From positions 160,001 to 224,000 of the forward strand of contig CAXXMD010000003.1 in NCBI GenBank assembly GCA_963675755.2: 64,000 nucleotides of DNA. Reading direction: 5' to 3'. This DNA comes from a bacterium. Its GTDB lineage: Bacteria > Zhuqueibacterota > Zhuqueibacteria > Residuimicrobiales > Krinioviventaceae. Of this stretch, positions 7,210 to 32,177 are shown piece by piece. The position numbers were made by a program, and so were the translations under genes. Within the stretch, counting starts at the first letter, position 1. Every line of letters begins with the position of its first letter. The notes below the pieces were generated by a model. That model did not search any database. It saw only the letters and a program-made list of their open reading frames with translations, and was not told where the DNA came from.

Positions 7210-9858
7210 TTATCGAATTAAAATTGCCTTCATCTGCTTTTTAAAATTACTGCTTTCCATAACATAAAAATACATGCCACTGGGTACATTCAATCCGGAA
7301 TCATTTTTTCCGTTCCAGACAACCTGGTAAGAACCGGCAGATTTCTGTCCGTCAACCAAAGTTCTGATTTGTTGTCCCATGGTATTGTAAACATTTAATT
7401 TCACATAGTCATCCTGAGGCAAAGCATAACGGATCAATGTTTCAGGATTAAATGGGTTCGGGTAATTCTGTGTCAACGTATAACTGGAAGGCAATTCACT
7501 CACAGTGTTTGTTAAATTTAAAACTTTATCAGCAGCCTGATCAGTTAATACAATATTTGACTCAAAAATAGTATTTCCTTTACTATCCAGACAGGCAATA
7601 TTCAGGTTTTTACCAATTGTCCATCCATTTGGTAAAGCGGCAATTTGTAAGGCAAATACACCGTCTTTAAGCTGACTGCCCGGTGATGTGGTTGTCACAA
7701 AAGCACTTGCATCATCGTCCATCCATGCTTTAACCAATGCAATTTTTTGATCTGATTGTGGTATAGAACCATAAACCATATGGGGAACAGTCAAAGCAGA
7801 AGCAGCATTGCCGGTTCCCTTTGCAAGGGCAGTTCTGGCGCTTACAGTGCTGCCAGAAGGCCACGAAACATTTGATGTCACATTGACATAATAGGGATAG
7901 CCAATGGTTGTGGTAAAATCAGTGCTCGATAATCCCGGAATATACTGATAATACCCCTGGATAGATGCATCCCAACGGGCCACACTGTTACAGCTGGTAA
8001 TATCGGCTTGTAATTGACTTGCAAGGGTTATATCAGACCTGTCTAGTGGCAGCATAATTTCATTAAAATCCGTTGTTGCAGTAGTCACCAATGAATAAGT
8101 AGGGTCTGTCAAGGTTCCGGTTATAGTAAAAACAGAATTGTCTACAACATTTACATAATAGGGATACCCTGCATATACATCAAAATTGGTACTTGAAAGC
8201 CCGGGGATGTATTGATAATAACCCTGAATTGTGGGTTCCCAGTAGGCTACAGAATTACAATTGGGAATGGCACTTGCAAGATCACTCGCGTCACTGATAT
8301 TGGCAACATTTAAAGGTAAAGCAATTTCATTAAAATCCGTTGTGGGTGTGGTGATCAAATAAAAATCAAATTCACCATAGATTTCAGAAGGTTCACTTTC
8401 AGAACCGTTCAAAGCGGTAACCGCGTAATAATAATTTACAGCAGCATTACCGGCAACATCACCGGTATCTGTCCATTGTATACCCGCTGTTCCACCATCC
8501 TCATCGGTTATTGCGGAAGCGACCCGGTTGGTTCCATTTTGTCTGTCTGGTACAAAATCAGGAGATGTACCACGATACACGTTATACGAAGAAGCACCCG
8601 AAACTGCATTAAACGTGAGCATTAAATTCGTTGTGTCTACCTTTACAGCCGATGTAATGGTTGTGGGATCTAAAATTTCCTGTCCATTATTTTTAACACC
8701 CGTAACAGTAATAGGTCCATACTTTTCGTTATACCAGCCGGACGTATTAAAACTGGAATGCGCAACCCATACGGTCATTCCTGCCTGCGCCAATTCGGAA
8801 ACACCATCATCCCAGGGTGCAGCAAGTGAATCGCTCCATACGCCATTTTCCAACACTTTAACCTGTTCGTTGGCCCTTCTGGAATTGTAATACATCAGCG
8901 TACCGTCAGAAAATGAAGTAACACGCATATAAGGACCGCTGGTATTGGCGAACATGATTGTATCGCCACCTACATAATGGTTCCAGGTACCATTACCCGG
9001 TTCCTCAGCACTGGAACAATACATTGCGGTTTCGTAAAATGTTCCATCATATTCCGCCAGGGTTTTATCGCACCAGGATACATATATAGTTCCATTTAGA
9101 ATTGTCATATAAGGGTTGGTACCCAAATGGCCTACTGCACCGTCAATGCCGGTAACAGTGGTCCAATCACTATCAGAGGTCGACATATATTTAAAAATCG
9201 CAGAACGCGGATCACCCTTCATTCGGGCCAGTACATAAATGTAGCCGCTATCACTGGTAAACAGGTAGGGAAACTCTCCGGAACCCAACGGTTGCGGTGC
9301 CCCCCATGTCGAACCGGTACGCACTACATAAAATAGTAAATCATTAACGCCTTCTTCATAAATAACATAGATCTTGTTATTAAACAAGACAATATCTAAA
9401 TTGATTTTTGATGGAGTTGTGTTTACAACCTGCACTGAACCGCTCCAGCTCCCGTTATACCAGGTCTTGTACCATATCATACCATTTTGGGTACAATAAA
9501 CAATATGCATTTTTCCGGCTTCATCAAATGTCATTCCTACATTACGTAAAGGGTACGAATGCTCATCTCCACCAAAAACAATTCTGGTATCGTCATCTAT
9601 GATTTCTGCACTTGACCATGAGCCATCGCTTTTACGGTAAACATGTTTCATATCCCCATCTTTAACCCAGATAACATGCGGGCGATTGTTGGTTGGGTCT
9701 ACAGCAACATTGGCACTATGGCCGCCAATTTGTTCCAGGGTTACCATTGGAATTATTTCAAGATCGTCTATGGATGCGCTAAAAGCATTAACAACGAAAA
9801 ACAGACTGAAAACTAAAAACAGTCCATTAAAATTAAAAGGAACACGTATCCTGGTCAT
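7210..9858 (-). CDS. Secreted protein: beta-propeller-like N-terminus, FN3-like domain, 2x TTDFNE repeat, PH-x-x-YG domain, CTD
   Basis: ORF track 7210..9903. The more likely start is ATG 9858, which follows a GGAGAGG RBS and precedes a hydrophobic signal peptide. Repeated 'H.V[WY]......Y....G.W' propeller-type blades. Confidence 0.8.
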   Translation of the reverse strand: MTRIRVPFNFNGLFLVFSLFFVVNAFSASIDDLEIIPMVTLEQIGGHSANVAVDPTNNRPHVIWVKDGDMKHVYRKSDGSWSSAEIIDDDTRIVFGGDEHSYPLRNVGMTFDEAGKMHIVYCTQNGMIWYKTWYNGSWSGSVQVVNTTPSKINLDIVLFNNKIYVIYEEGVNDLLFYVVRTGSTWGAPQPLGSGEFPYLFTSDSGYIYVLARMKGDPRSAIFKYMSTSDSDWTTVTGIDGAVGHLGTNPYMTILNGTIYVSWCDKTLAEYDGTFYETAMYCSSAEEPGNGTWNHYVGGDTIMFANTSGPYMRVTSFSDGTLMYYNSRRANEQVKVLENGVWSDSLAAPWDDGVSELAQAGMTVWVAHSSFNTSGWYNEKYGPITVTGVKNNGQEILDPTTITSAVKVDTTNLMLTFNAVSGASSYNVYRGTSPDFVPDRQNGTNRVASAITDEDGGTAGIQWTDTGDVAGNAAVNYYYAVTALNGSESEPSEIYGEFDFYLITTPTTDFNEIALPLNVANISDASDLASAIPNCNSVAYWEPTIQGYYQYIPGLSSTNFDVYAGYPYYVNVVDNSVFTITGTLTDPTYSLVTTATTDFNEIMLPLDRSDITLASQLQADITSCNSVARWDASIQGYYQYIPGLSSTDFTTTIGYPYYVNVTSNVSWPSGSTVSARTALAKGTGNAASALTVPHMVYGSIPQSDQKIALVKAWMDDDASAFVTTTSPGSQLKDGVFALQIAALPNGWTIGKNLNIACLDSKGNTIFESNIVLTDQAADKVLNLTNTVSELPSSYTLTQNYPNPFNPETLIRYALPQDDYVKLNVYNTMGQQIRTLVDGQKSAGSYQVVWNGKNDSGLNVPSGMYFYVMESSNFKKQMKAILIR
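7860..8352 (-). repeat. Tandem pair of ~78-aa TTDFNE...CNSVA.W...QGYYQYIPG...GYPYYVN repeats (copy set 1 of 3)
   Basis: Seen in translation. Other pairs lie at about 10645-11140 and 14355-14845. Boundaries approximate. Confidence 0.85.
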
Positions 9859-10022
9859 TTCCTCTCCTGATTCAACTAAATATTTAATCTTTGCACCATG
9901 CAAATTGTATACCTATACAGGAACATTCAAGATCCTGTAACTAACTGTAAATAAAGAACACATTTTTATCTACTTTTGGGCGCCTCCGTTATTAACAAAA
10001 CCTGTATTACAATTTTGTAATA

Positions 10023-13000
10023 TCATCGTAAAAGTAACATTTTACGTTTTTCTATCTTGTCAGCATATCGTAATGTATAAAAATACACACCAGACGCGGT
10101 CGTTTTTCCAAAATTATCTTTACCATCCCAAATCACCTGATGCATTCCGGATTGCTGCACACCTTGCACCAAATTTCTCACATTTCTGCCATTTACATCA
10201 ACAACTGACAATTCTACGACACCTGCATCGGGAAGTGAAAATTGAATCATTGTTTCAGGATTAAACGGATTAGGAAAATTCTGAAACAGATTAAATGAAT
10301 CTACGGTTTTTGTCTCAATTTGCAGAGACTTAATCTTATCTGCAGGGCTGAATGAAAGCTCAACTATACCGGTTGCTACACTTTCATCCTGGTCATTATA
10401 AAATGTAACAGAAACCTGATCACCTACTGCCCAGCCGCTTTGTAAATTTCCCAGTTGGGCATACCAAGCCTTGCCATCAATTGCAGAGCCCGGAGAATCC
10501 TGGCTAATGATCTGATCTTTATATTTTGCAACAAAACGGGTTACACTGTCTACACCTTCAATCTCACCATAGATCAAATGCGGAACTGATGCAGCAATTC
10601 GTGTGGTTTCAGTATATTTTTGTTTCAACAGTGCACCGGAAGAAGGCCATGCATTATCACCGGTTACATTTATATAATAGGGATAACCAAGATATGTATC
10701 AAAATTAGTACTCGACAATCCGGGTATATATTGATAATAACCTTGGATAGATGCATCCCACTTGGCCACACTGTTACAATAGGGTATGTCGTTTAAAAGG
10801 TCCTGCGCCGTTACCAATGCGCCTTTACTCAAAGGAAGCATCACTTCATTAAAATCAGTAGTTTCTGTCGTTTGCAGCATAAAAACAGGTTCGGTCAGAG
10901 AACCATCAAGCGTAAAATAAGTATCCTGGGTAACATTTACATAATATGGATAACCGGGATAAACTGAAAAATTTGTACTTGACAAACCGGGAATGTATTG
11001 ATAATAGCCTTGTATGGATGCATCCCAATAGGCTATTGAATTACAATAGGGTATAACATTTAATAAAGTTTGTGCATCGGTAACGCCATCTACAGCCACG
11101 GGTAAGGCAATATCATTAAAATCTGTGGTTTCAGTGGTTATCAACTCAAAGTCAAAAACACCATACACATCAGACAAATCACCTTCCGCACTGTTACGAA
11201 CGGGAGCAACCCGGTAATAATAATTTACAGATGCATTTCCTGCAACATTATCGGTATCTGTCCATTGTACACCGCTTGTTCCGCCATCCTGATCAGTCAC
11301 ACTTGCAGCTACACGGTTCGTGCCGCCATCCTGGTCAGCAACAAAATCGGGACTAGTACCACGATATACATGATACCCTGTTGCATTCTCTATTGCATCC
11401 CAGGTCATAAGCAGATTTGTTCCACCTGTCACACTGGCATCAGATATGACAGGAGTTCCCAGGTTGCTTGCAGAGCCTACCTCATATACCTGGTCTGCGG
11501 CAATGCCTTCATAATCCTGAACATCACCATTGGTCAAAGTAACGCGGATATCACAAGTTGTAAATCCACTCAAGCCAAAATGCAGAGCGGTCTGATTTTG
11601 ACACAAATAACTGTAATTAGATACCGATTCCTGGTAACCCAAAAGATAATTTGAATTGCCAATATAACCTGGCTGATAAACAGCGACCTTGGTACCAAAA
11701 CCACCATAATCGCCACCGGGGCCGGTGCACAAAACGTCAATATAATGATTACTGTTTTCTGAATCATTTCTCAGCATAAAGTTGTCGCCATATGTACAGG
11801 CAATAAAATAATCGATATCGCCATCATTATCAATATCCGCATAACCAGCACCTCTGGCACCACCAGCTGCAACTTCAAGAGCAGGTACATAACGATATGT
11901 CAAATTGCCGGCACCGTCATTCAAATATAATTCAGGTCTTGCGCCTTCTTCTTTTTCATCATTACGGATCAAATACAGGTCAAGATCTGCATCATTATCA
12001 ATATCACCAAAGACGGTGGAATAACCACTTACGGTAATACCATAATCCAAAGTAGCATTCACAAAATAACCGTTACCATTATTTTTAAAAATCCTCAAAT
12101 TCGGAAGATCGGTACTTCCAGAGAGGGTATAATTCATTACCACCAGATCAAGATCTGCATCATTGTCCAGATCTACTAAAGTAGCACCGTGCGAACGTCC
12201 ACCAATGTTAACGCTGCGGGCTGCCGCTTGTTCAGTAAAATTTCCGTTACCATCATTAATAAACAACCAGTTTGCAACTTCGCGACGACAAACATACAAG
12301 TCTATATCACCATCATTATCCACATCACCAGCGGTTACGCCCTGGCGTCCTTCTATATCTCCATCAGGCCCATTGGTCCCACGGTCCACGCGGGTCATTT
12401 GGCCGTTACCATTGTTTAAATATAATGCATTGGGATCACCCCAATTCAATACAAACAAATCCAGCCATCCGTCATTATTAATATCTGTAGCAACCGCTCC
12501 ACGGCTGAAAAAAGTCTCTGTGGAAATTCCGGCCCAGTCAGTAATGTCTGTAAAATTACCATTTCCATCATTTCTATACATCCGGTTACGACCCGGTGGC
12601 AAAGTTTCACCAACCGGCTGATTGCTCAGAAACACATCCAGGTCACCATCATTGTCGAAATCCGCTGAAACCACACCATGTGTATGGCCTTCATCTCCAA
12701 TACTCCTGCTTACAGCTTCATTGGTAAAAGTATTGTTCTGCTGATTTATATAAAGTACATCTTGCATAGTGGGGCCACCAGCATTGGTATAAAAAACATC
12801 ATACCAGCCATCCTGGTTCACATCACTAAAGCTTACACCATGGCCATAACCTTCCGGAGAAATCCCTGCTACACCTGCAGAACTGGTAATATTGGTAAAG
12901 GCGATTGTTGAAGCACCAGGATCACTCTCGCCGCGGCCATAAATACGGATATTCGAATATACTGGCCCTACCTGACCTTCATACATATTATCTGTACCTA

Positions 13001-13616
13001 AAAAGATATAGCGAAACTGTTCAATCATGGTACGGTACATTTCCAATTCACCCTGTACAACACCATCAACAAATGTCCATACAGAACCTTCGTCCCAAAC
13101 AATCTTGAATTCATATGTATCATTAATATTCCAGGTAGCGCTCTGCATATATCGGTCTTCTTCTCTACCGCCCGCATAAGCTGCCAGCATTTTGTAACCA
13201 GCCAGTCCCGGCCCATCCGAATAAGAGGTACCTGTACGAATATTCACCCATGCACCATCAGTATCAAAAATGTCTTTACTGCCATTTGCTTGCGAATAAA
13301 GATTGATAATCTGCTGCTTGTCGGTATGATTTTGATTAGCAGGATCAAAATTAGAAACATCAACAACAAAGGTACCTTCACGAGGCAGATCAGCCGGCAA
13401 TGTAATAAATAACTGGCTAGTGGTTTGCGTTGCCTTCCAGCCGACAGCCCTGAATTCACCATTATTGTTCTGGATATAACCAACACCGGAATTACCACCA
13501 TCCAGCAAATCGTCAGAATATAACAAGTTTGTATGCGTTGGAGCTGTGGCCGCAAACACCAATCCCATTGGCCAACAGAATAATGTTAACATTATGATTT
13601 TGGAAAGAAAACGCAT
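10023..13616 (-). CDS. Secreted FG-GAP/VCBS (CRTAC1/ASPIC-UnbV-like) protein with N-terminal beta-sandwich, shared C-terminal module and CTD
   Basis: Seven D.DNDG..D Ca-binding repeats. '[12 protein letters not shown]' ASPIC/UnbV motif. FN3-like domain, 2x TTDFN[DE] repeat, PHLIYG domain, LFQNFPNPFNPET. Confidence 0.85.
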   Translation of the reverse strand: MRFLSKIIMLTLFCWPMGLVFAATAPTHTNLLYSDDLLDGGNSGVGYIQNNNGEFRAVGWKATQTTSQLFITLPADLPREGTFVVDVSNFDPANQNHTDKQQIINLYSQANGSKDIFDTDGAWVNIRTGTSYSDGPGLAGYKMLAAYAGGREEDRYMQSATWNINDTYEFKIVWDEGSVWTFVDGVVQGELEMYRTMIEQFRYIFLGTDNMYEGQVGPVYSNIRIYGRGESDPGASTIAFTNITSSAGVAGISPEGYGHGVSFSDVNQDGWYDVFYTNAGGPTMQDVLYINQQNNTFTNEAVSRSIGDEGHTHGVVSADFDNDGDLDVFLSNQPVGETLPPGRNRMYRNDGNGNFTDITDWAGISTETFFSRGAVATDINNDGWLDLFVLNWGDPNALYLNNGNGQMTRVDRGTNGPDGDIEGRQGVTAGDVDNDGDIDLYVCRREVANWLFINDGNGNFTEQAAARSVNIGGRSHGATLVDLDNDADLDLVVMNYTLSGSTDLPNLRIFKNNGNGYFVNATLDYGITVSGYSTVFGDIDNDADLDLYLIRNDEKEEGARPELYLNDGAGNLTYRYVPALEVAAGGARGAGYADIDNDGDIDYFIACTYGDNFMLRNDSENSNHYIDVLCTGPGGDYGGFGTKVAVYQPGYIGNSNYLLGYQESVSNYSYLCQNQTALHFGLSGFTTCDIRVTLTNGDVQDYEGIAADQVYEVGSASNLGTPVISDASVTGGTNLLMTWDAIENATGYHVYRGTSPDFVADQDGGTNRVAASVTDQDGGTSGVQWTDTDNVAGNASVNYYYRVAPVRNSAEGDLSDVYGVFDFELITTETTDFNDIALPVAVDGVTDAQTLLNVIPYCNSIAYWDASIQGYYQYIPGLSSTNFSVYPGYPYYVNVTQDTYFTLDGSLTEPVFMLQTTETTDFNEVMLPLSKGALVTAQDLLNDIPYCNSVAKWDASIQGYYQYIPGLSSTNFDTYLGYPYYINVTGDNAWPSSGALLKQKYTETTRIAASVPHLIYGEIEGVDSVTRFVAKYKDQIISQDSPGSAIDGKAWYAQLGNLQSGWAVGDQVSVTFYNDQDESVATGIVELSFSPADKIKSLQIETKTVDSFNLFQNFPNPFNPETMIQFSLPDAGVVELSVVDVNGRNVRNLVQGVQQSGMHQVIWDGKDNFGKTTASGVYFYTLRYADKIEKRKMLLLR
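10645..11140 (-). repeat. Tandem TTDFN[DE] repeat pair (copy set 2)
   Basis: TTETTDFNDIALP...CNSIAYWDASIQGYYQYIPGLSSTNF...GYPYYVN, twice. Boundaries approximate. Confidence 0.85.
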
Positions 13617-13720
13617 AATACTCCTTTTCTACATTTATTTTGTAAATACATACAAAAAACTATCAAATTTGCGAAAAAACAAAGAGATAAATATAAAATA
13701 TTATCTTACTTTTACAATAC

Positions 13721-16700
13721 TTATTTTAACAATACCGCCTTTTGCACCTTGTGATACGTACCAGCTTTCATCATGAACAAATATGTTCCGCTTGCAGCTT
13801 GACGGCCAAAATCATCACAGCCATTCCACTCTACCGAGTAACGTCCCGCTGTTTTTTCCTGATTGATTAATGTTCTTACACGCTGACCACGTGTGTTGTA
13901 TATCTCAATCAAGACATGAGCCTGTTCCGGCAGCTGATATTGGATCATGGTTGTGGGATTAAAAGGATTGGGATAATTCTGATCCAGACCATAATGATCA
14001 GGAATATCCACAACATCAAGTGCTCCGGCAAAATCCACAGCATTGGATGAAAGTGTATGTTCTATTGTATTCAACAGATTATTGTTTTCATCAAAAAACT
14101 CTACAATCAGCACCTGGTCTGGAGACCAGCCGTTTTCGAAATTACCCGCCTGTACCATCCAGTTTTCAGCAGTTATAAAACAACCAGGCGAGGTTTCATT
14201 TAGTGCCTTTTCAGGCAGATGACTAAGATATGCATTAAAATGTTGTACCTGGGTATCAGACATTTCACCCCAAATTGCATGGGGAGCTTTGCTGACAGAA
14301 TTCGTCTTGACAACCATTTCAGTTGCTTTGGCTTTTGAAAACGCACGTTGCGGCCAGCTAGTAGGAGCTGTAACATTGATATAATAGGGATAACCAGCTT
14401 TTATATCAAAATTTGTATGAATCAATCCTGGAACATATTGCCAATACCCTTGAATTTCAGTATCCCATTTTGCTACACTGTTACAATTTGGAATATCCTC
14501 TGCAAGATCAGCACTGGTTATTAATGATGCCTTGTCAAAAGGAAGTGTAATTTCATTAAAATCTGTGGTTGCTGTAGTAATCAAATTAAAGACAGGAGTA
14601 ACAACTTTGCCTAAAATCGTTAACACCTGATCTTCAAGCATATTGACATAATAGGGATTACCCATCTCGATTGTGAAATTGCTGGGCTCAAAACCCGGTA
14701 CATATTGTACATAATCCTGTAATTCAGCAGACCACATTGCTACAGAATTGCAGGAAGGGATATAAGATAGCAAATCATTTGCAGTTGTTATGCTTTCAAC
14801 AAAAAGCGGTAATGCAATTTCATTAAAATCTGTGGTTGCTGTGGTTAAAAGTGCATAATCAAACTCACCATAACTCAACGTAGCACTACTTTCTTCACCA
14901 TTCCGTAACGCGGTTATTCGGTAAAAATAATTAACACTTGTATTCCCCACAACAGGATCAGTATCTATCCACTGTACACTTGGCATTGACGCATCCTGAT
15001 CGGTAACGCCGCTTGCAACCCGGTTGCTGCCCGATTCATAATCGGGTTCAAAATAAGGATCCGTACCACGGTACACATTGTATCCTGAGGCGTTTGAAAC
15101 ATTAGTCCAGGTAAATTTAATATTATCGTCATCATGCACATTTGCATGCAAAATAATGGGTGCAGTCAATGCCTGATATGCATCAATTTCAAAAACCTGA
15201 TCAGCCTGCACGCCGGTATAATCAAGAATATCTCCATTTGTCAATTCTACACGAATATCACAAGCATTTCGGTTCTTTAAACCGAAATGTAATGCTGTTT
15301 GATTTTGTGACAAATACCCAAAATTCGAAACCGCTTCCTGATACCCTATTAAATAGTTGGTATCACCCAAATGCCCGATTTCATATACAGACACTTTTGA
15401 ACCAAAACCGCCATAATCACCTTTTGGACCTTCGCAAAGCACATCAATATAATGATAGTCATTTATCAGGTCATTGCGATACATGAGATTCCACGAATTT
15501 GCACAGGTAATATAAATATCAAGATCTCCGTCATTGTCATAATCCGCCAATGCTCCTGCACGCGCGTCACTTCCCCCGTCATCCAATCCGATTTCATTAA
15601 TTTCAGTAAATTTTCCGGTTCCGTCATTCAACAACAACTGGGGTGTAGCACCAGGTTCATTTTCATCATTCCGAACCAGCAACAAATCAGGATACCCATC
15701 ATTATCCATATCCCCAACTGCCGCAGTATAACCGCTAATGGAAATATTATATTCACTGCTCATGTCTGTAAAAAAACCGTTTCCATTATTGATAAACACA
15801 GACAACAGAGGCAAATCAGAACTGCCCGAAGTAGAATAATTTACAACAAACAAGTCCATGTCACCATCAACATCAATGTCAGCAAAGGTGGCACCATGCG
15901 ACAAACCGCCGACATTTACACCACGTTCTGCAGCATCATCATCAAAATTACCGGAACCATCATTGATGTACAATAAATTTCCAGCATCCCGCTGACATAC
16001 ATAAATATCAATATCACCGTCATTGTCAACATCGGCTGCAGTTACGCCTTGCTGAGCGGTTACATCCCCAGCCGGACCATCTGCACCTCTGTCAGACCGG
16101 TTCATTTTTCCTGTACCATCATTAATATATGTTTCATTTTGGCTGCCCCAATTCACAGTATATAAATCCAGATAGCCATCATTATTAATATCTAATGCAA
16201 TAGCACCACGCGAATACCCATAATAATCAGATATACCAAAACCTTCGGTAACATCAGTAAAGAATCCCGAACCTTCATTACGATAAATACGGTTCTTCCC
16301 TGCTTGAATATTCACACCAATGGGTTGATTGGCAAAATAAGCATCCTGATAGCCATCATTATTCAAATCCGCTAAAACCACACTATGCGTATAACCGCTA
16401 TCCTCAACATTCCTTGTAGCGGCTTCATCATGAAACTGCCCCTCACCATTATTAATATACAACTGATCCAGAGTACTCTCTGTGCCCCCTGCATTACTAA
16501 CAGCAAGATCCTGGAATCCATCCCGGTTTAGATCGGCAAAAGCAGCTGCACGACCATAGCCTGCTGATGAAAACCCCTTAACATTTACCGCCTCTGTAAC
16601 ATCCGTAAACTGTACATATTTTTCAGTAACCTGAATATAACCTGACTGGGTTTTAGTATCACTCCCGCCATCACCGGATACAGATAAAGTAACAGTATAC

Positions 16701-25998: not shown

Positions 25999-26333
25999 CT
26001 TTTTAGATAATACATTCGCCCTACCGATGTAATATCTTTGTGTAGAACTTTTTCCTGTCATCGTGGTTTGGCAGCCCCCTGCTCTATATCCACAATATGG
26101 AAGGAACAAGTTCCCCCATTTACTCAAGTGTGTTCCTCGAACACACCCCCTCATCTTATATGCGACCCCTCAAACTGTATAATCACTTCGAATAATGGCA
26201 TATATTAATATAGTGCCTTAAAATATGCAAAATCTTACACTTTATTTTAAAAATATCACTTTTTTTTGTATTTATTTCTTGTATATTAACTTTATACACG
26301 CTTTTTTTTGTCTTTTTGAGGAGATTCTTCAAA

Positions 26334-26969
26334 ATGGATCACAAACGACAAGGTACAAACGATATGACACTAGGTGACCTCCTCGACAACTGCACCAATC
26401 CCAACTCCCCTGTTTGGGAAAAAAGCTGGCAGGAATTCCTCAACAGGTATCAAAATTTCATCTATAAACTTGTATTAAATCGATGCAAAAGCTGGAATTT
26501 GCAACGTATTCAATGCCAGTTACAAGAAGAGGTTGATGACATTGTATTTATAATTATAAGACACTTTATTAAAGACGATTATCGTTTTTTAAAACAATTC
26601 CAAAACCGCGATAACCCACAGCTTTTTCTATTGTACCTATCTACACTCATCAATAGAATTACTAGAAGACATTTGGCAGTTCATTTCAACAAAATTTTAG
26701 ATAACCTTGATGAAGATCAGACAAAAGACACTTTGAAGGAAATATCCCCCGAAGCAGGTTGGGAAATTTACGAAGAACTGATACAAACGCTTCGCAACAG
26801 CATAATTAATAAACATCCCAATAATGAACGCAACATACACCTCTTTCTTATGTATACATGGACAGATATGTCGATTGATATGCTTACCCACAATGATTTT
26901 TACAAACCAATGGGGCAAAATGCCATATATACATTGATAAATCGCATGAGAAATAAAATAAAAGTGTAA
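26334..26969 (+). CDS. Divergent ECF-like RNA polymerase sigma factor
   Basis: GAGGAG RBS then ATG 26334. Region-2-like 'WQEFLNRYQNFIY...EEVDDIV...F.....F..YL..L..R'. Region-4-like 'RNIHLF.M....MS........M...AIY.LINRMRNKI'. Confidence 0.7.
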   Translation: MDHKRQGTNDMTLGDLLDNCTNPNSPVWEKSWQEFLNRYQNFIYKLVLNRCKSWNLQRIQCQLQEEVDDIVFIIIRHFIKDDYRFLKQFQNRDNPQLFLLYLSTLINRITRRHLAVHFNKILDNLDEDQTKDTLKEISPEAGWEIYEELIQTLRNSIINKHPNNERNIHLFLMYTWTDMSIDMLTHNDFYKPMGQNAIYTLINRMRNKIKV

Positions 26970-27030
26970 GATTTTAGTTATAAAACTACACTATATTAAT
27001 AACTGATAACTGTAAAAAGCAAGGTAGTTC

Positions 27031-27441
27031 ATGAGCAGCAGCATAATCGTTCATAAACTTTCAATAGGCAAAGTTTTATCTATAATTCAAGATGATCAAA
27101 ATAGAGAGAAAAATATCTTAGAGAATTATCCGGAATCTATTCATTATTATAATAGCTTAAAGGCCCGTTTCAACAAATTTGAAAATGACCCCAATCTCGC
27201 AAATTCGATATTCAACAGTATCCCGAAACAATGTTGCCAGGCCAACAAATCTTTTTTGAAAGATAACGATGATTTTTTTATCGCGTATACTATACTTTCA
27301 AAAAAGCAAGATATTCACATTAACAATGCTAAACAGTTTATTCATCATTTAAATAACTGCTATTGGTGTTTCATTGAATATAACCAGTTTATAAATGATG
27401 AATACTTTACTAACAAAGAAATTGAGACGGGGGTACTGTAA
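27031..27441 (+). CDS. Small cytoplasmic protein with an HxxxCxxC (ZAS/zf-HC2-like) motif
   Basis: 'FIHHLNNCYWCFIEY', plus an upstream CC pair that could supply the fourth ligand. AAGGT RBS. Confidence 0.65.
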   Translation: MSSSIIVHKLSIGKVLSIIQDDQNREKNILENYPESIHYYNSLKARFNKFENDPNLANSIFNSIPKQCCQANKSFLKDNDDFFIAYTILSKKQDIHINNAKQFIHHLNNCYWCFIEYNQFINDEYFTNKEIETGVL

Positions 27442-27445
27442 TAAT

Positions 27446-28558
27446 ATGCGTGAATTAAAAATAACATATGAGCAAATTCTGGAATATATTAATAATCCGG
27501 ATACCAAATCTATAAATATCAGTGAATTAAAAGAAAGCGATCCTGCTTGCTTTTCTCTTTTCACAATGATAGATAATAGCCTGAAACATGCAAATTCGCA
27601 AAATATAGGCACAGAAAACACCACCGCAGGATATCATGAACTCGAAATGATAATCCTGGAACAATTGAGTGGCAATGTTACCAGGTACAACTCGGAAAGA
27701 TTTTTATCTCTCATTACCAGTCATCCTGATTATTACAGAAGAATTCTGGACACCTTTGACACGGAATCCATTCAAGCAGTTAAACTTGAAAACATTGAAA
27801 TCTCAGACAATAACACCCTTATTGAAATAATAAAAGGTCATGAAAGCAATAAAGAAATCCATAAACAATCCACGTTCTTACAATTAAAACTAGTTCTAAA
27901 CCGTTTTTTTCAAAATCTTTTTATGCCAAACAAAAGACCACATTATGCTTTAATCGCAGTTGTCGTTATGACTTTTTCCATTCTCACATTTAAAACCTTT
28001 TTTCAGGAATCTGTTCATAATCCTGTCTATACAAAATATTTCCAATCTTCTAATTTACCTTGCGAATATTATGAAACCTCTACCAGAGGCAACGTTGTAT
28101 CTTTTGATTCAGATTCTCAATACAACAAGACACTAAATCAATTTAAATTCGCAATGGCTGATTATATTCAAAAAAACTATCAAGATGCAAAAAAATCACT
28201 CAACACTATCCTAACTGAAATTGAATCTGGCTCCACACAATCATTGAATACAAGTTCAAATGGAAAGCAACTATTAAGAGACATTTATTTTTACACAGGT
28301 ATTTGCGACCTGGCACTAGCCGGCAAAATGTTTGACACCTCTTTAATTGAATCTGCTTCTGATAGATTCAATACCGCAAAAAAACTGGTTCTTGAATCCA
28401 ACATGAAAGGAGGTGACCGAGAGTTCTTTTTCCTGGGTTTAACTTTTAACCTGCTGGGGAACGATTCACGCTCGCTTGAATATTTGGGGAACATTCAGGA
28501 AAACAGTATCTATTACAGAGATAGTCAAGTTATTGTATCGCAGCTAACGAACCGATAG
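27446..28558 (+). CDS. Single-pass membrane protein (anti-sigma-like) with a C-terminal TPR-like domain
   Basis: ATG 27446 lies 4 nt after the upstream stop, with a GGGGGT RBS. One TM segment (YALIAVVVMTFSILTF) preceded by KR. Then 'ETSTRG' and TPR-like helices (AMADY...NYQDA; YFYTGICDLA; FFLGLTF...G). Confidence 0.7.
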   Translation: MRELKITYEQILEYINNPDTKSINISELKESDPACFSLFTMIDNSLKHANSQNIGTENTTAGYHELEMIILEQLSGNVTRYNSERFLSLITSHPDYYRRILDTFDTESIQAVKLENIEISDNNTLIEIIKGHESNKEIHKQSTFLQLKLVLNRFFQNLFMPNKRPHYALIAVVVMTFSILTFKTFFQESVHNPVYTKYFQSSNLPCEYYETSTRGNVVSFDSDSQYNKTLNQFKFAMADYIQKNYQDAKKSLNTILTEIESGSTQSLNTSSNGKQLLRDIYFYTGICDLALAGKMFDTSLIESASDRFNTAKKLVLESNMKGGDREFFFLGLTFNLLGNDSRSLEYLGNIQENSIYYRDSQVIVSQLTNR

Positions 28559-28568
28559 GAGACAACGA

Positions 28569-28733
28569 ATGGAGTTATTTTACCTGTTAATGTCTGGTGT
28601 TGTTGCAGCTGTAACCAAAAGGCTGGTTGATATAAAAAATTTCCAACGGGAAACTGGCATCATTAAATCCCATGGAGGGGATGATCCGGATCCACCACCA
28701 CCCCCTCCCGACCCACCAGATCCCAATTGTTAA
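28569..28733 (+). CDS. Unannotated 54-aa peptide MELFYLLMSGVVAAVTKRLVDIKNFQRETGIIKSHGGDDPDPPPPPPDPPDPNC
   Basis: AGGAGA RBS overlaps the upstream TAG, with a 6-nt spacer to ATG. Pro codons are varied (CCG/CCA/CCC/CCT). A terminator hairpin follows directly. Shorter than any ORF in the track (60 aa minimum). Confidence 0.75.
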   Translation: MELFYLLMSGVVAAVTKRLVDIKNFQRETGIIKSHGGDDPDPPPPPPDPPDPNC

Positions 28734-28740
28734 TTAAAAC

Positions 28741-28770
28741 GGTCCTGCCCTTTTTTGCAGGGCCATTTTT
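28741..28770 (+). terminator. Intrinsic terminator / 3' stabilising hairpin after the peptide gene
   Basis: GGTCCTGC-loop-GCAGGGCC followed by ATTTTT. Confidence 0.7.
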
Positions 28771-28786
28771 CGTTAAAACCTGCCTG

Positions 28787-28815
28787 TTGCATTTGAATAT
28801 TTTTTGATTTATCTT
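28787..28815 (+). promoter_or_regulatory. Candidate sigma70-type promoter of the CHAT gene
   Basis: TTGCAT-N17-TATCTT between the terminator and the CHAT start. Confidence 0.4.
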
Positions 28816-28844
28816 GTAATTCAACTAATATTTCATATGTGAAA

Positions 28845-31800
28845 ATGAAAAAACTAATTCCAACATTACTCCTCTTGATATCAAGTTGTCTTGCTTTTGC
28901 AAATCAGGATAATGTGGAATATTATGACTTTCTTCAAACCCTGCAAGGCCTATCAGACAGCACACAGCTTGAACACACCTTGAACTATTTATATGACCAT
29001 CCTGATTTTTGGAAAATATATGAAAAAGCATATAGATTATTTACTTATACGGGTCAAAAAGAAAAGGCATATACTTTTTATGCAAATCTGGTAAATGACA
29101 AACAATATTCACCTTATGCAAATCTGTATTTGTCAAAACTCTACAGAGAAGACAATAAAGCTGATTTCGCCAAACAATATTTTATTTCCGGGTTAGAACA
29201 AAGACAAGATTATTATATTATCTCCGAGTATGCAAAAAATTATACCAATTCATCCCAAATTGACTCAATAGCAAAAAGCCTCTTAGACAGCACCCAATTA
29301 TTGATGGCTAATGGAATGAGTAATTACTACAAGGCCAAATACACTGAGGCAATTGACCTGCTTGAACAAGTATTACAGCATGACAATAATTTAAATTTAC
29401 AGATCATGCTTGGTTATTGTTACATTATCAATAACCAGCATCAACAAGCAGATTCGGTATTTGAAGCAGGTTACAATGATGCAATAAAACAATATAATAT
29501 AGACGGTCAGATTATTTTTTTACAATCATTGGGCAAACTAGCGCTTACACAGAACAACTATAATAAAGCAGAAACGCTGTTAAACAAAGCCCTGGAAAAA
29601 TCTGATGAAATCATAGATTACAGGCGTAAAATAACAACTTTTAATGAACTGGGAAAATTAAAACAAAAACAGGATAAAACAGATTCAAGCTTGGTATATT
29701 TTAATCTGGCCCAATCATACTCTGATAAATTTAAAGGGGAAATACAACTTGCTCAGGTCCTGAGAAATGGATACAATTTTCATCTACACCATCAATACTC
29801 TCAAGCAGTTCAATGCTACAAAGAATCTATCGAGTTGATTGAACCTAATGACTGGAATAATGAATTACGTGTAAAAAGCCTGCTTGTAACACTATATGAA
29901 CGTTTTGGCATGATCAGCCTCATGAACCAAATGCTTGCTGAATGTAAAGTTTTGGCAAATGAAAATAATTACATCAGCACACAAAAATGGGTAGAACTTC
30001 AGGAAATAAAAAATCAACTTTCATTAGATAATTTAGATATTCAAAGGAAAAACCTGGTTAAATTATATAATTATTATCTTAACAAAGGAAATAACAATTT
30101 ATACGGTTGCCTACACACACTTGCCAAGTCCTACATTATTGAGCATAAATATAAAAAAGCACAAACTTTTTATCAATTAGCACTCGATCAAGCTATTAAA
30201 ACAAACAATCAGAGTAAAATAGCATATTATTATGCCCGACTTGCATTTTGGGATATTAAATGCGATGAAACAGACAAAGCCTTGGCAAGGCTGGATTCGG
30301 CAAAAACAATAATTAATAAAATTGACGATTCATATATGGCCAGATTTGTATATAGAACAACGGGGTTGGCACATGAAAAAGCGGCTGATTATGACAGTGC
30401 ACTGGTCTATTATTACAAAGCTATACCTCATACTGAACGGCTTCGTAATAAATTATCAGCCGAAGATCTGAGAATTGGGGTCTTTTCAAGCGATGCCTCT
30501 ATTTACCAGGGTATTGCCCGCAGTTATTTGCAAAAGTACATCTCGAGCAACAATTCTTCCTTATTAGACAGCCTGTATAAATACGAAGAAAGCTTTAGAA
30601 GCCGTGCACTGAAAGACAGAATGGACAATCGAAATATTATGTCCGGTTCAGGCAAGCCGACTAATGAATACTCGCAAGCAATGGAGATGATTTCAGATTT
30701 ACAACAAAAACTGAGAAAACAGGCAGGGACAGAACACACAGATCCCGAATGGGACCAGTTAATGGGCGATCTTGAAGCTGCAAAATACACATTAATCCAG
30801 CAGCGTATATTTATGATTGACAGCTTAAAAACCAGTCAACAAAAAGATTCCGGTACATCTGTGCAATTGTCAGAAATCCGAAAGCAGCTTGAGAAAAACA
30901 ACGCGGGTTTACTTGAATACCACATTGACAGCGAAATCTCGTTTGTTCTAGTAGTAACACCTGACACCACCCATACAGTATTGCTTGCAACCTCCCAAGA
31001 TTCACTTTCAAAAAAAATAAAAAAACTAATGTCTCCATTGCATGATTTGCAAGAGCAAGATCCCAAGATCCCGTTTTATGCCCAAACAGCATATCAACTT
31101 TATGCGGAAATATTTAATCCCATTGAAAAAGAGATCAAACTGCCGGAGAACCTGCTGGTCATCCCGGATGGTCCATTAATGAATCTTCCATTTGAAATGC
31201 TAGTCACACATAAACCAAACAAAGCCGCTTATACCCCCTTGGACGAACCAGACTATAGCAATTCCTTTTTATTGAATCAATATTCATTATTTTACAGCCC
31301 CACCAGCAATATACTAAAAAAATCAGGCTTGAAATTGCTCAACAGACCCAACATGATGGTTTTTGCAAATCCGTTTTCAAATGTTAATGAAATTTCAGAC
31401 AATGTATTACAATACCGTTCACGTACCGGCTGGAATTTTCAGGCCCTCCCGTTTGCTGAACTGGAAGCAAATGAAATATCAAAATTAACTAGCCGGGTCA
31501 AGCTCTACAAACGACAAAACGCAATTGAAACCTACTTTTCCCAAAATGCATCCAAATATGACATTCTCCATCTTGCTACACACGCTTTTGTAGACACTTC
31601 ATTTGAAGCTTTTTCAGGCCTTATTCTTGCTTCCAGTGAGGATTCTACAAACGATGGAATTTTAATGGGTTATGAAATAGAAGACCTTGATCTGGATTGT
31701 GAACTGGTTACATTGAGTGCATGCGAAACCGGTAGAGGCAAAAATATGGCCGCAGAAGGATTGCTGGGCTTGCCCCGATTATTTATGGGAGCGGGAGCAA

Positions 31801-32141
31801 AATCCGTTCTCATGTCACATTGGAAAGTGGATGACCGATTTACTTCAAAACTGATGCCTTTATTTTATCATTATTATTTAACAAAAAAAATGGACAAAGC
31901 AGATGCGCTAGCAAATGCCAAGAGGGATCTTATTAAATCATCGCAAGAAATAAACGGGGAGCATTACCAGCACCCCTTATACTGGGCTGCATTTACTTTA
32001 TATGGCAATCCTGATAAAATCACAAACACATCACCCATTTTACCGGCAGCCATATTGGGTTCAATTTTCATTTTTGCGATACTCGGTGGAGCAGTTGTTA
32101 AAAAAAAGAAAAGCACAAAAAAAAGCGGACATTTAAATTAA
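28845..32141 (+). CDS. Exported TPR-CHAT (caspase/HetF-like, clan CD) cysteine protease with a C-terminal membrane anchor
   Basis: Signal peptide MKKLIPTLLLLISSCLAFA. Many TPRs. CHAT motifs IPDGPL..LPFE.L, ILHLATHA (His), LVTLSACETG (Cys), GAGAKSV.MSHWKVDD and HPLYWAAFTLYG. C-terminal TM followed by KKKK. Alternative GTG start at 28839. Confidence 0.9.
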   Translation: MKKLIPTLLLLISSCLAFANQDNVEYYDFLQTLQGLSDSTQLEHTLNYLYDHPDFWKIYEKAYRLFTYTGQKEKAYTFYANLVNDKQYSPYANLYLSKLYREDNKADFAKQYFISGLEQRQDYYIISEYAKNYTNSSQIDSIAKSLLDSTQLLMANGMSNYYKAKYTEAIDLLEQVLQHDNNLNLQIMLGYCYIINNQHQQADSVFEAGYNDAIKQYNIDGQIIFLQSLGKLALTQNNYNKAETLLNKALEKSDEIIDYRRKITTFNELGKLKQKQDKTDSSLVYFNLAQSYSDKFKGEIQLAQVLRNGYNFHLHHQYSQAVQCYKESIELIEPNDWNNELRVKSLLVTLYERFGMISLMNQMLAECKVLANENNYISTQKWVELQEIKNQLSLDNLDIQRKNLVKLYNYYLNKGNNNLYGCLHTLAKSYIIEHKYKKAQTFYQLALDQAIKTNNQSKIAYYYARLAFWDIKCDETDKALARLDSAKTIINKIDDSYMARFVYRTTGLAHEKAADYDSALVYYYKAIPHTERLRNKLSAEDLRIGVFSSDASIYQGIARSYLQKYISSNNSSLLDSLYKYEESFRSRALKDRMDNRNIMSGSGKPTNEYSQAMEMISDLQQKLRKQAGTEHTDPEWDQLMGDLEAAKYTLIQQRIFMIDSLKTSQQKDSGTSVQLSEIRKQLEKNNAGLLEYHIDSEISFVLVVTPDTTHTVLLATSQDSLSKKIKKLMSPLHDLQEQDPKIPFYAQTAYQLYAEIFNPIEKEIKLPENLLVIPDGPLMNLPFEMLVTHKPNKAAYTPLDEPDYSNSFLLNQYSLFYSPTSNILKKSGLKLLNRPNMMVFANPFSNVNEISDNVLQYRSRTGWNFQALPFAELEANEISKLTSRVKLYKRQNAIETYFSQNASKYDILHLATHAFVDTSFEAFSGLILASSEDSTNDGILMGYEIEDLDLDCELVTLSACETGRGKNMAAEGLLGLPRLFMGAGAKSVLMSHWKVDDRFTSKLMPLFYHYYLTKKMDKADALANAKRDLIKSSQEINGEHYQHPLYWAAFTLYGNPDKITNTSPILPAAILGSIFIFAILGGAVVKKKKSTKKSGHLN

Positions 32142-32177
32142 ACATCCGCTTCCATCATTATATAAAATCCTGAATTG

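Follow-up and report, generated by a model that had tools for sequence, protein, structure and literature searches.

A conserved small protein with a predicted membrane anchor, encoded at the end of a sigma factor-like operon, ahead of a TPR-CHAT gene in candidate division KSB1

Introduction

Between the gene for a single-pass membrane protein and the gene for a TPR-CHAT protein, the bacterial DNA analyzed here contains a frame of only 54 codons that opens with a hydrophobic segment and closes with an acidic, proline-rich tail. This raises the question of whether the frame is a gene and what so small a protein would do at this position. The sequence-only reading of the locus, in which the frame was missing from the list of open reading frames (ORFs), considered it to be a hidden peptide precursor whose C-terminal 17-mer activates, inhibits or is a substrate of the adjacent CHAT/TPR proteins. 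The window is a stretch of 64,000 nucleotides (nts; positions 160,001 to 224,000 of the forward strand of contig CAXXMD010000003.1, assembly GCA_963675755.2), and all coordinates refer to it. The source genome is called G000, its GTDB family f1, and another family of the same class f11.

DdvA is described as the one studied case of a periplasmic TPR-CHAT protein linked to an ECF sigma factor, and its signal and substrate are reported to be unknown; a zinc anti-sigma domain, for which a CHCC pattern is described, a transmembrane (TM) helix and a periplasmic TPR-CHAT region are joined in it (PMC11506125). As a small membrane protein encoded with a sigma factor, YhdK of the sigM-yhdL-yhdK operon complexes with the anti-sigma factor YhdL (PMC6827917).

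Results

Coding status of the small frame

The features of the frame and its immediate signals are as follows.

28569..28733, + strand: P0001, small protein gene, 165 nt, 54 codons plus TAA
28575-28616: hydrophobic helix of P0001, residues 3-16
Residues 17-35 of P0001: K/R-rich amphipathic linker
28674-28730: acidic Pro-rich tail of P0001, residues 36-54, with a Pro6 run at 28692-28709
28557..28562, + strand: Shine-Dalgarno-like AGGAGA, overlapping the TAG stop of P0002 (28556-28558) and 6 nt 5′ of the P0001 ATG
28741..28770, + strand: intrinsic-terminator-like hairpin and T-run, which ends the sigma operon

Translation of the frame reproduced exactly the 54 residues and TAA reported before, and the two signals ascribed to it, a ribosome binding site coupled to the upstream stop and a 3′ hairpin of its own, were both found. 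The gap between P0002 and P0001 is 10 nt. In the terminator scan the hairpin (28741-28764) consisted of 8 pairs, 6 of them G-C, followed by ATTTTT; it begins 7 nt past the P0001 stop and folds with -16.8 kcal/mol (z = -2.35). In G001, a genome of the same genus, the stem is preserved and the loop altered.

The mixed Pro codons had been taken to argue for coding selection rather than slippage, and mixed codons were indeed found. The ten Pro codons of P0001 include all four CCN types (CCG once, CCA five times, CCC three times and CCT once), and Tandem Repeats Finder found no tandem repeat in P0001. Runs of at least six CCN codons are rare, with six in the 6.48-Mb genome (39.5% G+C) when all frames of both strands are counted. 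Three small frames with Pro6 or longer runs elsewhere in the genome were dismissed, as each of them overlaps a larger gene on the opposite strand.

At the matching position G001 has an ORF of 54 codons with 85% amino-acid identity to P0001. Twenty-one codons differ between the two, 13 of them synonymously and 8 non-synonymously, giving pS 0.41, pN 0.077 and a pN/pS of 0.19 (Fisher p 4.5e-6). This value is within the range of the neighbouring genes in the same comparison (0.11 for P0005, 0.21 for P0002 and 0.22 for the CHAT gene P0003). The remaining five frames across P0001 contain 3-5 stops each. All 8 replacements are confined to residues 16-35, and codons 36-54, which encode the Gly-Gly and the acidic Pro-rich tail, contain 10 synonymous and 0 non-synonymous changes. 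By the measure of these substitutions, P0001 is a genuine coding gene under purifying selection, and its tail is the most strongly constrained part of the protein.

The exact 54-aa sequence was found in a public protein collection with no name attached, so that P0001 was hidden only relative to the ORF list of the sequence-only reading. The homologues from G017 and G014 are deposited as 'hypothetical protein'. A search for sequencing runs gave 7 rows from 3 studies, 2 of which shared at least half of the query words, and none was an RNA run.

Relatives of P0001 and gene order

Of 8 candidates from a homologue search with the single P0001 sequence, only two were homologous, P0001 and its G001 counterpart, and a protein-atlas search yielded no usable match. 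When a profile of 17 homologues was compared with 1.84 billion representative proteins, 22 matches were obtained at E <= 1e-3, all of them 47-91 aa long and of the same build. None of the 17 homologues matched a Pfam family at a meaningful score, the best match being OAD_gamma in 2 of the 17 (E 0.0014). As far as these searches go, P0001 is a member of an unnamed small-protein family restricted to the candidate division KSB1 lineage.

The sequence-only reading had suggested scanning upstream of homologous CHAT genes for equivalent small ORFs, and within the lineage such ORFs were found. The profile of P0002 detected one copy in 15 of the 18 other f1 genomes; the order's four further families, sampled with 24 genomes, gave none. 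Among the 16 f1 genomes having a P0002-like gene, G000 included, 15 carry a small ORF of 47-67 codons on the same strand between the P0002-like and CHAT genes. The sole exception is G007, in which the gap between these two genes is just 67 nt. The proposed association with the CHAT and TPR proteins thus holds as gene order, conserved in 15 of 16 genomes, and the functional link is one of synteny only. The locus of G010 looks degenerate, with the P0002-like match split and a TAG inside the CHAT match.

In most P0001 homologues a GGAG/GAGG-type sequence is located 4-9 nt 5′ of the start. A hairpin with a T-run is found within 110 nt 3′ of the small ORF in 8 of 15 f1 genomes, with a stop-to-stem spacing of 7-32 nt. 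These Shine-Dalgarno-like sequences and downstream hairpins indicate that the small gene closes the upstream operon; the CHAT gene is probably transcribed separately.

On a wider scale, the 5820 small ORFs on either strand of 80 CHAT loci (732 kb, all phyla) were filtered for a hydrophobic N-terminus combined with a Pro-rich tail, and nine passed. Five of the nine are directly upstream of a CHAT gene, all in KSB1/Calditrichota loci, and none was directly upstream of CHAT at the 55 loci of other phyla. This filter missed the ORF of G014, for which an earlier in-frame start was taken.

Operon neighbours

The genes follow each other in the order P0004, P0005, P0002, P0001, terminator and then P0003, whose start is 111 nt past the P0001 stop, behind the terminator.

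26316..26969, + strand: P0004, divergent ECF-type sigma factor (by fold), first gene of the operon; start uncertain (TTG 26316, in-frame ATGs 26334 and 26364)
27031..27441, + strand: P0005, soluble protein of 136 aa with a Cys...His-x3-Cys-x2-Cys (CHCC) motif
27446..28558, + strand: P0002, single-pass membrane protein; the longest ORF begins at 27395, the start of the orthologue corresponds to 27446
28845..32141, + strand: P0003, TPR-CHAT protein with an N-terminal signal/lipoprotein-like peptide, TPR repeats, CHAT, a C-terminal TM helix and a Lys-rich tail

P0004 matched no family in Pfam or NCBIfam, and the comparison of its sequence profile with the PDB gave only E values of 0.15-0.97. Its AlphaFold2 model (mean pLDDT 84) was compared with the PDB by Foldseek, and the best eight matches were ECF sigma factors in complexes with anti-sigma factors (sigmaE/RseA, AlgU/MucA, SigW/RsiW; prob 0.94-1.00), with weak global E values of 6e-3 to 0.15, followed by the other ECF sigma factors SigK, CnrH and BldN. 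Against the sigma-2 domain alone (4lup) the fit was good, with a TMt of 0.78 and an rmsd of 2.7 A. Because the sequence-profile searches were weak, P0004 is assigned as an ECF-type sigma factor by its modelled fold only.

For P0005 no match was obtained in Pfam, NCBIfam or PDB sequence searches. Its residues C69, H106, C110 and C113 are invariant in all ten orthologues, and the protein resembles a zinc anti-sigma domain; the motif and the position in the operon suggest an anti-sigma role.

P0002 has no Pfam family. The AlphaFold2 model consists of a helical N-domain, a long helix, a membrane helix at about 182-203 (numbering from 27395) and a well-predicted C-domain. The C-domain matched three-repeat TPR domains with TMt 0.74-0.85, and Rap structures appeared just at ranks 42-44 among generic TPR matches. 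From this model the N-domain is predicted to be cytoplasmic and the three-TPR-like C-domain periplasmic.

P0003 matched CHAT in Pfam at 2.6e-59 as well as TPR families, and all 6 aligned orthologues retain H913 and C960. A C-terminal hydrophobic helix with a basic tail is present on the CHAT proteins of all 25 KSB1/Calditrichota-type loci, and the same helix and basic end occur in many Bacteroidota CHAT proteins having no small ORF. The TPR-CHAT body of P0003 is predicted to be periplasmic and membrane-anchored.

None of the five operon proteins matched a defence family of PADLOC. The nine flanking ORFs are of housekeeping type (STAS, GIY-YIG, PFK, NadA, RsmB/F, Fe-S biosynthesis, a PAS histidine kinase and two without a match), and across these nine the earlier remark that the window shows no transporter or modifying enzyme proved correct. 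Inspection by eye of the regions upstream of the sigma and CHAT genes revealed no common promoter motif.

Conserved build and predicted topology

The alignment of 17 homologues, together with the matches among the representative proteins, shows a common build. Met is followed by Asp, Glu or Gln and then by a hydrophobic helix of 14-23 residues with Lys/Arg directly after it. C-terminal to this helix is an amphipathic stretch in which Leu/Ile recurs at intervals of three to four residues, and then a hydrophilic tail with one or two acidic residues ahead of the prolines. The hydrophobic N-terminal helix is present in all 17 homologues; in G000 and G001 it spans just 14-16 residues, a short length for a helix crossing the membrane.

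K/R is found before the hydrophobic segment in none of the 17 homologues, and 2-6 K/R are found within the next 15 residues in all of them. According to the positive-inside rule such a pattern predicts an N-out/C-in orientation, of which Pf3 coat and AcrZ are examples. Since K/R occurs only after the helix, an N-out/C-in anchor is predicted, and the tail of P0001 is thereby predicted to face the cytoplasm. The relative P0025 has an extra lipoprotein-type signal ahead of the helix, which likewise puts the tail inside.

The polyproline itself is not universal in the family as sampled. Among 31 members, which are kin and not independent, 18 have a run of at least 3 Pro, 9 have one Pro-Pro and 4 have none. 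In the 18 with a run, the distance from the end of the helix to the start of the run has a median of 26.5 residues (range 17-37), and to its end a median of 34. Among the 17 aligned homologues, only the two of this genus, G000 and G001, have the Gly-Gly and the terminal Cys.

Small ORFs beside CHAT genes in other lineages

A weak match in G052 led to a second set of small proteins in f11. In 8 of 19 f11 genomes there are small ORFs carrying a clear lipoprotein signal with a lipobox, and in their tail Gly is followed by one or two acidic residues, 5-8 consecutive Pro and a Gly run with an aromatic residue at its end. In 7 of the 8 genomes the ORF is convergent with the CHAT homologue and about 30-870 nt from the 3′ end of the CHAT-homologue match, and the eighth is on a contig of 1.8 kb; these tallies, and no other statement here, draw on the unpublished genomes G116 and G120. 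In G052 two copies stand in tandem, adjoining genes for an ECF sigma factor and a zf-HC2/TPR anti-sigma factor. Alignment by hhalign of the sigma-like and CHCC proteins of the present operon with the sigma and anti-sigma factors of f11 was not significant. A downstream gene of 351 aa considered as a synteny marker shared with G052 was dropped, as its Pfam family is NadA here and a TPP enzyme there.

In G119 and G046, signal-bearing and Pro-containing small ORFs are located upstream of CHAT genes. In Calditrichota, L061 and L063 have TM-anchored versions with a tail opening with Gly-Asp-Asp-Pro, and L049, L051 and L054 have in the same slot a soluble ORF of about 110 aa with no signal and a Pro-containing tail. 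At 17 further CHAT loci in families f8-f11 such an ORF was found within 1.5 kb only in G046 and G052.

Within this class, a membrane-anchored small protein with an acidic-then-Pro tail thus recurs beside TPR-CHAT genes. The lineages differ in where the tail is predicted to be, in the cytoplasm in f1 and in the periplasm in f11. The similarity of the tails may reflect homology or convergence, the common part being of low complexity.

Discussion

An accessory membrane subunit as the favoured explanation

The analysis establishes the coding status, conservation, gene order, charge and hydrophobicity pattern of P0001 and the folds of its neighbours, and we infer its membrane topology and any physical contact or effect on sigma activity. 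The reading that we favour, tentatively and at somewhat below an even chance, is that P0001 is an accessory single-pass subunit of a transmembrane signalling complex of sigma factor, anti-sigma factor and CHAT protein. Members of the family, of 47-74 residues, would be inserted in the membrane once, N-out/C-in, with a short amphipathic helix on the cytoplasmic face followed by an acidic, Pro-rich and probably extended tail. P0001 is encoded by the last, translationally coupled gene of the P0004-P0005-P0002 operon, and its hydrophobic helix would lie in the membrane against the TM helix of P0002, that of P0003 or both. On the cytoplasmic side, its amphipathic helix and tail could dock or space P0005, P0004 or the N-domain of P0002 and thereby tune the release of the sigma factor. 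Its role would then be analogous to that of YhdK beside YhdL.

The location of the gene within the sigma/anti-sigma operon favours such a role. Against it, the similar small ORF of Calditrichota L063 is 560 nt before the CHAT gene in surroundings that lack sigma and P0002-like genes, an arrangement that points to CHAT as the partner rather than to the anti-sigma proteins. In addition, if the f11 lipoproteins are functional equivalents, the cytoplasmic tail in G000 is hard to square with a shared partner. The probability that remains after this explanation and the three considered below is left to functions that we did not consider.

A possible ligand or substrate of the protease

L063 and the f11 lipoproteins bring in another possibility, namely that P0001 is a tethered ligand, pseudosubstrate or substrate of the periplasmic TPR-CHAT protease, with its tail outside; we consider this unlikely. 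It retains the core of the sequence-only proposal but drops the Gly-Gly processing. By analogy with securin, the tail might occupy the TPR groove or the CHAT active site and either hold the protease off or be cut on activation, a step to which we give an equally small chance. Securin bound to separase, and a linker near the CHAT dyad, are described in the DdvA study and are parallels for it (PMC11506125). The strong constraint on the tail fits this reading, as do the small ORF accompanying CHAT even without sigma genes (L063), the f11 lipoprotein versions beside CHAT in 7 of 8 genomes, whose tail is necessarily periplasmic, and the signal-bearing versions upstream of CHAT in G119 and G046. However, all 17 homologues of the G000 type are N-out/C-in by charge, which places the tail in the cytoplasm, and P0025 agrees with them. 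In L049, L051 and L054 the slot is occupied by the soluble, signal-less ORF of about 110 aa with its Pro-containing tail, and the resemblance of the f1 and f11 tails, being of low complexity, may be convergent.

Possible translational pausing at the proline run

The Pro run, preceded by Asp and followed by Asp/Gly/Asn, might act on the ribosome, either instead of or in addition to a role in the finished protein. It would stall the ribosome until EF-P or a pulling force relieves it, which we regard as improbable. EF-P is reported to relieve pausing at consecutive prolines (PMC6613710). A stall at the time when the anchor is just out of the exit tunnel might aid the targeting of a very short protein, or might report insertion capacity in the manner of MifM and ApcA, and the same low expectation applies to this form. 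The distance from helix to Pro run is narrow in the 18 of 31 members that have a run, and a TM helix and a lipoprotein signal are both force-generating, which would explain a common tail across compartments. If true, the pause would account for the similar acidic-Pro-Gly tail behind two anchors, the TM helix of f1 and the lipoprotein signal of f11, near CHAT. It is likewise improbable that a pause about 26-34 residues past the anchor keeps the ribosome waiting for the anchor to engage the insertion or export machinery and so couples the output of the sigma/CHAT module to the insertion capacity of the envelope.

Monitoring substrates pair an N-terminal signal or TM segment with a C-terminal arrest motif containing Pro (PMC7897499). 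The arrest peptides MifM, ApcA, ApdA, ApdP, SecM and VemP are, like P0001, products of small ORFs that carry a membrane or export signal N-terminally and a Pro-containing motif C-terminally; their C-terminus is cytoplasmic, which for P0001, as for ApcA, is predicted (PMC7897499). Unlike them, P0001 is not upstream of sec or yidC, and it is followed by a terminator and not by a stem sequestering a Shine-Dalgarno sequence.

The distances are unfavourable as well. From the end of the Pro run it is 32 nt to the terminator stem, and from the stop it is 111 nt to the start of the following gene, so that a ribosome stalled there reaches neither, the putative stall site being too far from any regulatory structure. 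A model in which the ribosome occludes the terminator was rejected on these distances. Moreover, the stop-to-stem spacing varies among the f1 genomes having the hairpin, the downstream gene encodes no Sec or YidC component, the f11 small gene is convergent with CHAT, and 13 of the 31 members have no run of 3 Pro.

The originally proposed secreted signalling peptide

The weakest explanation, which we hold to be very improbable, is the one originally proposed, in which a secreted precursor is cut after Gly-Gly and a peptide of 17 residues is sensed by the TPR proteins in a Phr/Rap- or bacteriocin-like manner. P0001 shares with double-glycine leaders and Phr/NprX peptides its shortness and a position beside TPR proteins, which are encoded on both sides of it, and the Gly-Gly precedes the tail in G000 and G001. 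Against this, the Gly-Gly is not conserved beyond that one genus, and Peptidase_C39 (PF03412) was not matched anywhere in the genome, which is 98% complete, whereas 7 of 14 control genomes gave matches. The nine flanking ORFs include no transporter, no bacteriocin or leader family in Pfam or NCBIfam matched the P0001 family, and the positively charged n-region of Sec signal peptides was present in none of the 17 homologues, which lack the charge pattern of both Sec and Gly-Gly leaders. The analogy with Phr/Rap and NprX/NprR fails on the type of peptide and on the predicted location of the receptor, because the tail is predicted to be cytoplasmic and the neighbouring TPR domains periplasmic or membrane-bound, not cytoplasmic receptors. 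The Gly-Gly leader reading is thus largely refuted, and the Phr-like reading is rejected.

Comparison with known systems

The locus resembles a split DdvA/DdvS system, with the sigma part assigned by fold only. Like the DdvA/DdvS locus of Myxococcus xanthus, it combines an ECF sigma factor, a CHCC domain, a membrane helix and a periplasmic TPR-CHAT region with a His/Cys dyad (PMC11506125). The parts that are fused in DdvA are separate proteins here, encoded by three genes (P0005, P0002 and P0003), and DdvA systems have not been described as including an extra small protein such as P0001.

The significance of the KSB1 locus is that it contains DdvA-like parts as separate genes, with an invariant His/Cys pair, and in addition a conserved small partner under strong selection on its tail. 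Having the pieces apart makes it possible to look for the substrates or binding partners of a periplasmic CHAT protease and for the route of the signal to the sigma factor. The small protein represents an unnamed family, comprising 22 clusters among the 1.84 billion representatives and corresponding to no Pfam family, and our literature search found no paper linking CHAT proteins with such small proteins. As these organisms are known mainly as metagenome bins and the mechanism is inferred, we value the locus as a well-defined lead.

YhdK has several membrane helices and is not known to have a Pro-rich tail, no sequence relationship between it and P0001 was found (Pfam), and its system has no CHAT protease. 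The likeness is in the arrangement, a gene for a small membrane protein after sigma and anti-sigma genes of one operon in Bacillus subtilis (PMC6827917).

Proteins of the TonB/OadG type also have an N-terminal membrane helix followed by a Pro-rich stretch, and the weak OAD_gamma matches were to this type; P0001 differs in having no C-terminal domain past the Pro run, and the matches are probably compositional. Among the five other Pro6 or longer runs of the G000 genome, one, a Pro7 run, is in a TonB-like gene.

Organization of the locus

The segment of the window at 26316-32141 looks like the DdvA/DdvS system of Myxococcus xanthus, a sigma/anti-sigma system with a periplasmic TPR-CHAT, split into separate genes. 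The parts are an ECF sigma that is recognisable by fold only, a soluble protein with the CHCC motif, and a membrane-spanning protein whose TPR domain is periplasmic. The TPR-CHAT is a separate periplasmic protein here, and its His/Cys pair is invariant.

Sequences flanking the CHAT gene

Comparison of the window genome with a genome of the same genus (G001) showed that approximately 45 nts immediately 3′ of the terminator that follows the 54-aa small protein (P0001) are almost identical (window 28765-28815), unlike the synonymous sites of the flanking genes, where the divergence is approximately 40-50%. Inspection of this segment by eye revealed TTGCAT and TATCTT separated by 17 nts, and the segment may serve the CHAT gene as its promoter or as an operator. 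At the 3′ end of the CHAT gene, the following feature is likely to be a bidirectional terminator.

32121-32153 (window), 15-pair hairpin with T-runs, between the CHAT and NadA genes, which are convergent

Variant loci in other genomes

At one locus of genome G014, the small ORF is followed by two TPR-CHAT genes in tandem.

8895-12221 (L023), first TPR-CHAT gene
12391-15861 (L023), second TPR-CHAT gene

At three Calditrichota-type loci (L049, L051 and L054), the slot between the gene similar to that of the TM-TPR protein (P0002) and the CHAT gene is filled by an ORF of approximately 110 aa, which encodes a soluble protein without a signal and with an acidic, Pro-containing tail at the end. In genome G010 (L043/L044), where the module may be in decay, the P0002-like gene is seemingly split into two matches and a TAG lies inside the CHAT match, yet a small ORF with a TM segment can still be read.

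Anchor types and small lipoproteins of family f11

In P0025, a member of the P0001 family, a lipoprotein-type signal precedes the TM-helix-polyPro module, and this protein may be an intermediate between the anchor types of f1, the GTDB family of the window genome, and of family f11, which belongs to the same class.

Separately, a conserved family of small lipoproteins is present in 8 of the 19 f11 genomes. These proteins have a lipobox and a tail consisting of Gly, one or more acidic residues, five to eight Pro, and a Gly run with an aromatic residue at the last position. In seven of the eight genomes, a TPR-CHAT gene is convergent with the small lipoprotein gene at a distance of approximately 30-870 nts, and genome G052 has a tandem pair of the lipoprotein genes.

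8722-8919 (L026, G052), small lipoprotein gene
9118-9372 (L026, G052), small lipoprotein gene
L156-L162, further loci with small lipoproteins of f11
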